From: Escherichia coli
Lineage (GTDB): Bacteria; Pseudomonadota; Gammaproteobacteria; Enterobacterales; Enterobacteriaceae
Reading direction: 5' to 3' (one strand)
NCBI RefSeq assembly: GCF_044647545.1
Contig: NZ_CP172818.1
Length of the DNA: 64,000 bases
Shown: positions 24,760 to 25,327 of the stretch, piece by piece
Layout: each line of letters begins with the position of its first letter
Numbering within the stretch: the first letter of the stretch is position 1
Program-made: the position numbers and the translations under genes
Notes under the pieces: generated by a model
Told to the model about the DNA's origin: nothing
The model's input: the letters and a program-made list of their open reading frames with translations, nothing else
Databases searched by the model: none

Positions 24760-25327
24760 TTATTCATAAATGAAGTTGAAAGTTGCCTGGGCGCGGAAAT
24801 CGCCAGGAACACCACTGCCAGCCGTGGTTTCGCGCAGTGCAACGGTCAGTTCAAGAGTTTTGTCTGTATCACTAATTTCCCATGGAATAAAACTCGGCGC
24901 ACTGTTTGGGATTAAGAATGTCGAATCATCTTCACCAAGTGCTTTTATACCCATACCAATATAATTAGTTGTTGATGTAGTGTCAGAAGAGAGTGGAACA
25001 ATTAATGCGGGAGTTGTTCCGGAAGCATTCCCACTGAGCCTGGTATTGATTTTGCTGACGCCTGTGGTACAACCGCTGGCAACCAGATTAAAATTCGCCT
25101 GTGCTTGAGTCGTTTTATTTGCAATTTTGTCCAGACCAAATTACTTCCGGGAAAGTTAATGTGTAGGTGTCACTCCCATCAGGGGTGACATTGTCGCCTG
25201 ATAACGTAATGTTACAAGTTGATGCTTTTACGGTTGCTGTAAAATCAACATTAATGTCTGTTGCAAGTACAGAGGATGATAAAAATAATCCAGTCAGTAT
25301 TGCCAATTTATGCAGTGTTATTCTCAT
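24760..25327 (-). pseudogene. yadM: Fimbrial subunit-like protein YadM, frameshifted (apparent pseudogene or sequencing error)
   Basis: N-terminal frame MRITLHKLAILTGLFLSSSVLA...SGQNCK stops at 25115..25117; C-terminal remainder ...ANKTTQAQANFNLVASGCTTG...FNFIYE continues in a frame offset by 1 down to 24760; span 568 nt is not a multiple of 3. Confidence 0.6.

Follow-up and report, generated by a model that had tools for sequence, protein, structure and literature searches.

Does the fimbrial subunit gene yadM on contig NZ_CP172818.1 of Escherichia coli (NCBI RefSeq assembly GCF_044647545.1) stop half-way because the strain has lost it, or because the record misspells it? This question was addressed in a 64,000-nucleotide (nt) stretch of the contig, referred to below as the window, in which a frame break in yadM is confirmed in the sequence as written. 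The damage consists of three edits packed into 10 nt on a Dcm methylation motif, is private to the window and is accompanied by an excess of private insertions and deletions (indels); we infer that it is probably a sequencing, basecalling, consensus or assembly error in the genome record and not a mutation of the organism.

Position and distribution of the yadM lesion

Reading on the minus strand from the ATG at 25327-25325, yadM runs through 70 codons (MRITLHK...TYTLTFPEVIWSGQNCK) to a TAA at 25117-25115, and the remaining pilin is open in the +1 frame from 25140 (FGLDKIANKTTQAQANF...ATFNFIYE) to a TAA at 24762-24760; from ATG to final stop the window has 568 nt versus 567 nt (188 amino acids plus stop) in the intact allele. 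These observations agree with the original prediction, made from the letters alone, of a yadM frame broken in mid-gene. The earliest in-frame start codon of the C-terminal remnant is the ATG at 24954, whose product would have 64 residues and no signal peptide, and the window yadM contains no single uninterrupted open reading frame (ORF) with signal peptide, pilin body, C-terminal strand and penultimate Tyr. The orthologues of yadM are single intact genes of 188 or 189 amino acids, which refutes the reading of the two frames as two genuine genes, a case that the prediction had allowed for if orthologues were split in the same way.

Alignment to intact E. coli yadM, which the original prediction had proposed as a check, located the frame break at 25140-25149 (Table 1; wider context: TTTCCCAGGAACTATTGG in intact relatives, TTTCCCGGAAGTAATTTGG in the window). 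The BLAST alignment resolves the lesion into the loss of an A between 25149 and 25148, by which the Dcm site CCAGG is destroyed, a C-to-G substitution at 25144, and an insertion of AT at 25141-25140, and these edits generate a TAA (25143-25141) in the +1 frame. Compared with FDAARGOS_497, the differences in yadM are confined to this lesion plus one synonymous single-nucleotide polymorphism (SNP) at 25015. The prediction had named the interval 25090-25150, inside which the lesion does lie, but within it had put the shift at the wrong spot, namely the aaataaaa octamer, with a homopolymer error as a possible cause. In fact AAATAAAA is unchanged across all five aligned alleles and reads GCA AAT AAA ACG, i.e. 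Ala-Asn-Lys-Thr, and the lesion lies 23-34 nt upstream of the octamer in the gene; the TAA of the octamer acts as a stop because the upstream lesion shifts the frame. Three further alleles (88% and ~73% nt identity, including K-12) keep the frame and read PGTIGLDKIANKTT or P-KMGLDKIANKTT. A homopolymer slip in the octamer is ruled out by its invariance in intact alleles, and the lesion, with one base deleted, one substituted and two inserted in a stretch of 10 nt, is not a change in run length. Likewise, a phase-variable contingency locus operating by slipped-strand mispairing was rejected, as a tandem repeat search of 24700-25400 returned none, no run length is changed and AAATAAAA is invariant. 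We also considered whether a known 'PEVIG' allele had merely gained a single T; the T-deleted query still found its best match at 98.0% identity with three differences, and there is no such allele. The window yadM is a +1-frameshifted copy of an otherwise intact, uncommon ST648-like allele.

The distribution of this allele and of the lesion was estimated by megablast with yadM against 5,426 complete E. coli genomes and by searches of proteins and metagenomes. The allele class occurs in 204 of the 5,426 genomes; the best matches are 99.2% identical, one base shorter (567 nt) and ST648-like, every listed match is annotated as an intact 'fimbrial protein', and the intact 188-residue protein is found on at least 1,000 contigs. 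The lesion itself occurs in none of the 5,426 genomes, the truncated product in its 70-, 71- and 85-residue versions is absent among ~15 billion proteins, a homology search with it gave no match covering the frameshifted tail, and exact 28-mer scans for the lesion gave zero hits in GTDB representative genomes and zero in JGI metagenomes. A shared lineage allele is therefore rejected, since no identical sequence exists in any of these sets; no independent support for the lesion came from other genomes, protein sets or metagenomes, and it is private to the window. That no other searched source carries it favours an artefact.

The Dcm motif and the private indels of the window

The yadM lesion overlaps a Dcm motif, CCAGG, of the CCWGG class. 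Such motifs are the dominant nanopore consensus error class in Enterobacteriaceae, and polishing corrects these errors only partly (Wick et al. 2019, PMC6591954). The window resembles these errors in losing the W base of CCAGG with the neighbouring bases garbled, and differs from them in that most of its other private indels lie off methylation motifs. The packing of three edits into 10 nt on CCWGG favours an artefact because Dcm sites are the main class of nanopore error, and so do the indels at the same Dcm site in three other independent assemblies, where this known systematic-error context is recurrently affected: in L008 and L009 it reads CCAGG>CCAGGG, both being indel-rich and SNP-poor (11-13 indel events per 3.2 kb), and in L012 it reads CCCAGG>CCAGG.

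ST648-like genomes match the window at ~99.9% identity over its 64 kb. Among themselves these relatives are separated by SNPs only (3-5 per 50 kb, with 0 indels), whereas ~22 SNPs and ~17 indel events over the 64 kb set the window apart from them. This excess of private indels and clustered miscalls over near-identical genomes is what an error-laden record should show, and it favours an artefact all the more because several of the private differences are multi-edit clusters (yadM; fhuA at 41456-61 and 41611-26; rpnC at 20169-81; the rpsB-tsf interval at 62931). Instead of one ORF, fhuA has three (364, 247 and 145 amino acids), the result of +C at 40944, a deletion of 9 nt at 41309, a complex +3 change at 41456-61 and +C/-C/-G at 41611-26, which total -6 nt and thus bring the last ORF back into the original frame; no other complete genome shares these lesions. 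Its in-frame changes delete TVR and replace an aromatic residue (W/Y/F), both conserved across divergent FhuA alleles, and their removal is a further point for an artefact. Six lesions within 700 bp of fhuA exceed what the background divergence allows (~1e-4 SNP elsewhere) and cannot be neutral decay. All fhuA lesions lie at or beside segments whose length varies among FhuA alleles.

In rpnC, which is truncated to 259 amino acids, a purine-rich 12-mer repeat region (GGAGGTAAGACA...) is rewritten at 20169-81 and replaced by GGGAAAAAGAAAAAG, and ~281 bp are gone, including a duplicated 'RpnC/YadD family' fragment that the relatives have; the repeat may either have been truly deleted or have collapsed in the record. 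For the products FhuA of 364 amino acids, RpnC of 259 amino acids and YadK with A21G, no exact match is on record. Four more private indels lie in conserved intergenic DNA (Table 1). Those at 56032 and 62931 occur in 0 of the 5,426 genomes, although the surrounding intergenic sequence is common to more than 5,300 of them, and unique indels in such widely shared sequence again favour an artefact. Outside yadM, fhuA and rpnC, the isolated private changes at neutral-looking sites comprise 4 indels versus 2 SNPs, far from the indel-to-substitution ratio of ~1:10 that is normal for E. coli, which points in the same direction.

Recording error or mutation

If the three edits on the Dcm-methylated CCAGG are a consensus error of this kind, the real strain would probably encode the normal 188-residue YadM and an intact yadN-ecpD-htrE-yadMLKC operon. 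Several observations weigh against this explanation. The private indels spare housekeeping genes wholly: apart from the four intergenic ones, all are in yadM, fhuA or rpnC, and ~50 other genes are untouched, so that their placement is not blind to gene function. Random errors would not give such avoidance (~0.12^4 counting just the four isolated indels); it looks like purifying selection on real mutations, unless polishing or curation favoured coding regions, and the artefact reading requires that conserved coding sequence was selectively cleared of errors. The private SNPs are mainly synonymous. Only 2 of ~141 Dcm sites in the region are altered, and differences of the window at Dam or Dcm motifs amount to 3 of 17 versus 3% expected, a weak signal that fell further, to 2 of 16, when hpt was corrected; a general Dam/Dcm enrichment was therefore discarded. 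That correction concerns hpt I9L (GATC>GCTC), which we had considered as a Dam-site miscall and which is a genuine polymorphism common to DFL.5 and many other genomes; because it is shared, the lineage is really distinct. In addition, natural inactivation is also seen elsewhere, both in this yadM allele and in the yad operon, as described below. All lesions lie in sequence of below-median GC content, though not extremely so, which fits incomplete short-read polishing and relaxed constraint alike.

The original prediction had paired a pseudogene with a sequencing error, and these are indeed the two main readings. A genuine strain-private pseudogene, in which a real complex mutation at 25140-25149 ends YadM after 70 residues, is the main rival and accounts for the confinement of private indels to intergenic DNA and the dispensable yadM, fhuA and rpnC, for the mainly synonymous SNPs of a distinct lineage, and for the fact that surface structures such as fimbriae and the phage and colicin receptor FhuA are common targets of loss; the independent losses of the same allele, the insertion in yadC of some ST648 isolates and the incomplete conservation of Yad operons (PMC3559732), all given below, would make it one more case of its kind. 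We consider it the less likely of the two, as three edits in 10 nt are atypical of spontaneous mutation and several other private differences of the window are alike, the density of lesions in fhuA is far above neutral decay, the indel-to-SNP ratio at neutral sites is ~50-fold above normal, none of the lesions occurs in any other sampled genome, protein or metagenome, and noisy assemblies demonstrably accumulate indels at this site. Were the lesions real, they might also record a localised burst of clustered mutagenesis in a single natural E. coli lineage, caused perhaps by error-prone short-patch repair that started at a Dcm site or by mutagenesis at breaks; its targets would have been intergenic DNA and AT-rich genes for dispensable surface proteins (yadM, fhuA). 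This we regard as very unlikely; if true, the indel-dominated multi-edit spectrum would be unlike any described spontaneous spectrum. Error-prone very-short-patch repair by Vsr, a highly improbable sub-case of the genuine pseudogene, would start from 5-methylcytosine deamination in CCAGG, followed by a Vsr nick and resynthesis of a ~10-nt patch 3' of it with several errors. All edits do fall in the motif or in the 11 nt that follow it 3' on the coding strand, and a second private change, at speE 8971, has the classic form of a deamination transition (CCTGG>CTTGG), but the other clustered lesions (fhuA, rpnC, rpsB-tsf) lie off CCWGG sites and the polymerase that fills very-short-patch repair tracts is accurate. 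In speE the private C>T, which is synonymous, replaces the methylated base of its Dcm site; it could reflect either the classic deamination hotspot at 5-methylcytosine or a miscall related to methylation.

Two further explanations concern the lesion more narrowly. A templated mutation, by a quasi-palindrome template switch or by a gene-conversion patch from nearby or paralogous sequence, was suggested by the new GGAAGTAAT, which by eye is roughly complementary to the upstream ATTAACTTTCC with three single-base bulges. It is largely refuted and extremely unlikely, given that the longest template within +/-1 kb on either strand has 7-8 nt, which is chance level, the 16-mer has a single occurrence in the window even when 2 mismatches are tolerated, the mutant and ancestral strands fold no better than shuffled ones (z = -0.21 and +0.60), so no significant hairpin forms, and no repeat exists at the lesion. 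Recoding, in which the ribosome would shift +1 within the 23-nt frame overlap (25140-25118), for example at AAA-UAA-A, to give a near full-length pilin, is scarcely credible. The two frames overlap, the 0-frame stop has AAA before it and A after it, and a stop inside an overlap with an open +1 frame recalls the programmed shift of the prfB type; in contrast to prfB, however, yadM of the window has no Shine-Dalgarno-like stimulator upstream, no suitable slippery codon and no repeat or structure at the site, and the shift is not conserved, all orthologues being single-frame. The combination of conserved shift, slippery site and stimulator that marks programmed +1 frameshifting is thus missing, and the product would carry WSGQNCK in place of the conserved GLDKIAN. 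Recording error stays our preferred account of the yadM lesion.

Operon context, consequences and other losses of yad genes

The yad chaperone-usher operon is flanked by folK/pcnB and panB, in the order folK, yadN-chaperone-htrE-yadM-yadL-yadK-yadC, panB, and this ORF map agrees with annotated relatives in placing yadM (Table 1).

Table 1. Coordinates of yadM, its lesion, the yad operon and the other genes and intergenic sites with private changes in the window
Feature	Position	Strand	Remarks
yadM locus, whole, frameshifted	24760..25327	-	568 nt; between htrE (usher) and yadL; orthologue of the Yad minor subunit
N-terminal ORF of yadM	25115..25327	-	70 codons plus TAA; signal peptide and ~48 mature residues; final 10 (EVIWSGQNCK) out of frame
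C-terminal remnant of yadM, +1 frame	24760..25140	-	126 codons plus stop; most of the pilin domain, including the ...ATFNFIYE C-terminal strand
Lesion in yadM	25140..25149	-	intact CCCAGGAACTATTGG to CCCGGAAGTAATTTGG in the window; net +1 nt; from alignments
Octamer aaataaaa with the premature TAA	25110..25117	-	unmutated; identical in FDAARGOS_497, ETEC1717, K-12 BW25113 and EcPF18
Private synonymous SNP in yadM	25015	-	Thr105, ACT>ACA; 125 nt from the lesion
yadN	28820-29428	-	yad operon
Chaperone gene	27982-28722	-	yad operon
htrE (usher)	25347-27947	-	yad operon
yadL	24140-24754	-	yad operon
yadK	23517-24113	-	yad operon
yadC	22192-23481	-	yad operon
rpnC	19416-20330	+	
fhuA	39904-42087	+	
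Intergenic private indel, aceF-lpdA	462		-1
Intergenic private indel, just past the gcd stop	11281		-2
Intergenic private indel, cdaR-yaeH	56032		+1
Intergenic private indel, rpsB-tsf palindrome GCTCGTACGAGC	62931		-5, complex

The name yadM, also given by the original prediction, is borne out by the position between htrE and yadL, by 62-63% amino acid identity to K-12-type YadM and by a match to the Pfam Fimbrial family. With K-12 YadM the gene shares, besides its position, the 188/189-residue length class and the N-terminal extension (Nte), Cys and C-terminal motifs; it differs in being a divergent allele (~73% nt identity around the lesion) and, in the window, in its interruption by the frameshift. 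The other six yad genes were correctly described as intact, as yadC, yadK, yadL, htrE, the chaperone gene and yadN show no indel versus intact relatives. The repaired or intact YadM matches PF00419 Fimbrial with 69.5 bits (E=4.9e-19, residues 28-187), and the conceptual translation of the +1-frame remnant does so with 60.8 bits (E=2.4e-16); a Pfam search with the 70-residue N-terminal product gave no match, and a sequence search for a homologue of solved structure found none at E<=0.01.

In chaperone-usher pili, a subunit that lacks the pilin body and the C-terminal strand is not captured by the chaperone, and the 70-residue product would be non-functional because both are missing. If the lesion is real, this fragment would be degraded, the Yad fimbriae would be short of one minor (adaptor) subunit, and the 355 untranslated nt might exert some polarity on yadL-yadK-yadC. 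The biological weight would be small, since one strain would lose a minor subunit of a cryptic, often disrupted fimbria; with an artefact, yadM would be intact, and both outcomes are ordinary. Yad fimbriae are described as cryptic gamma-type chaperone-usher fimbriae encoded by yadN-ecpD-htrE-yadMLKC, with YadM among the minor subunits YadMLK (PMC13245861). For annotation, the lesson is that the visible stop codon is not where the damage sits, and for quality control, that the lesion falls on a methylation motif also miscalled in other assemblies. As fhuA and rpnC are similarly broken, pseudogene calls from this genome record should be verified in the reads before any study of gene loss or of the adhesin repertoire relies on them.

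Losses of a simpler kind were found in the same yadM allele. An A is deleted from an A4 run at yadM nt 295 (GCAAAATC) in five assemblies (L006, L010, L013, L014 and L015), leaving a 107-residue N-terminal fragment; it is the sole indel within the 3.2 kb compared in L006, L010 and L014, and L013 and L015 have few more. L011 carries a GGA>TGA nonsense codon at yadM nt 325. Both the A-run deletion and the nonsense codon probably mark real pseudogenes at the level of lineages. A survey found the Yad operon intact in 94% of strains (Wurpel 2013, PMC3559732), and this figure, together with the A-run deletion, the nonsense codon and an IS3-family insertion in yadC, makes inactivation of yad genes ordinary. 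The operon in the window resembles such naturally disrupted ones in that it is fimbrial and core-associated and has one truncated structural gene; their lesions, however, are simple (a single-base change, a run deletion or an insertion sequence), whereas that of the window is a private three-edit cluster.

The IS3-family element lies inside yadC in ST648 isolate 624 and similar genomes (H81-H85; L019 19193-20504), and in isolate 624 the fhuA-fhuB segment has been recombined to a much more divergent, K-12-like type (L019 ~36900-44700). In yadK of the window, two private transversions 4 nt apart, at 24048 and 24052, fall in the signal peptide (T22 synonymous and A21G), and YadK with A21G is not among the ~15 billion proteins. 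Regarding the start of the yadM homologue, RefSeq annotation in relatives places it at an ATA one codon upstream of the ATG (189 amino acids; L001 6016-6018) and other sources use the ATG (188 amino acids), a minor inconsistency in start-codon annotation.
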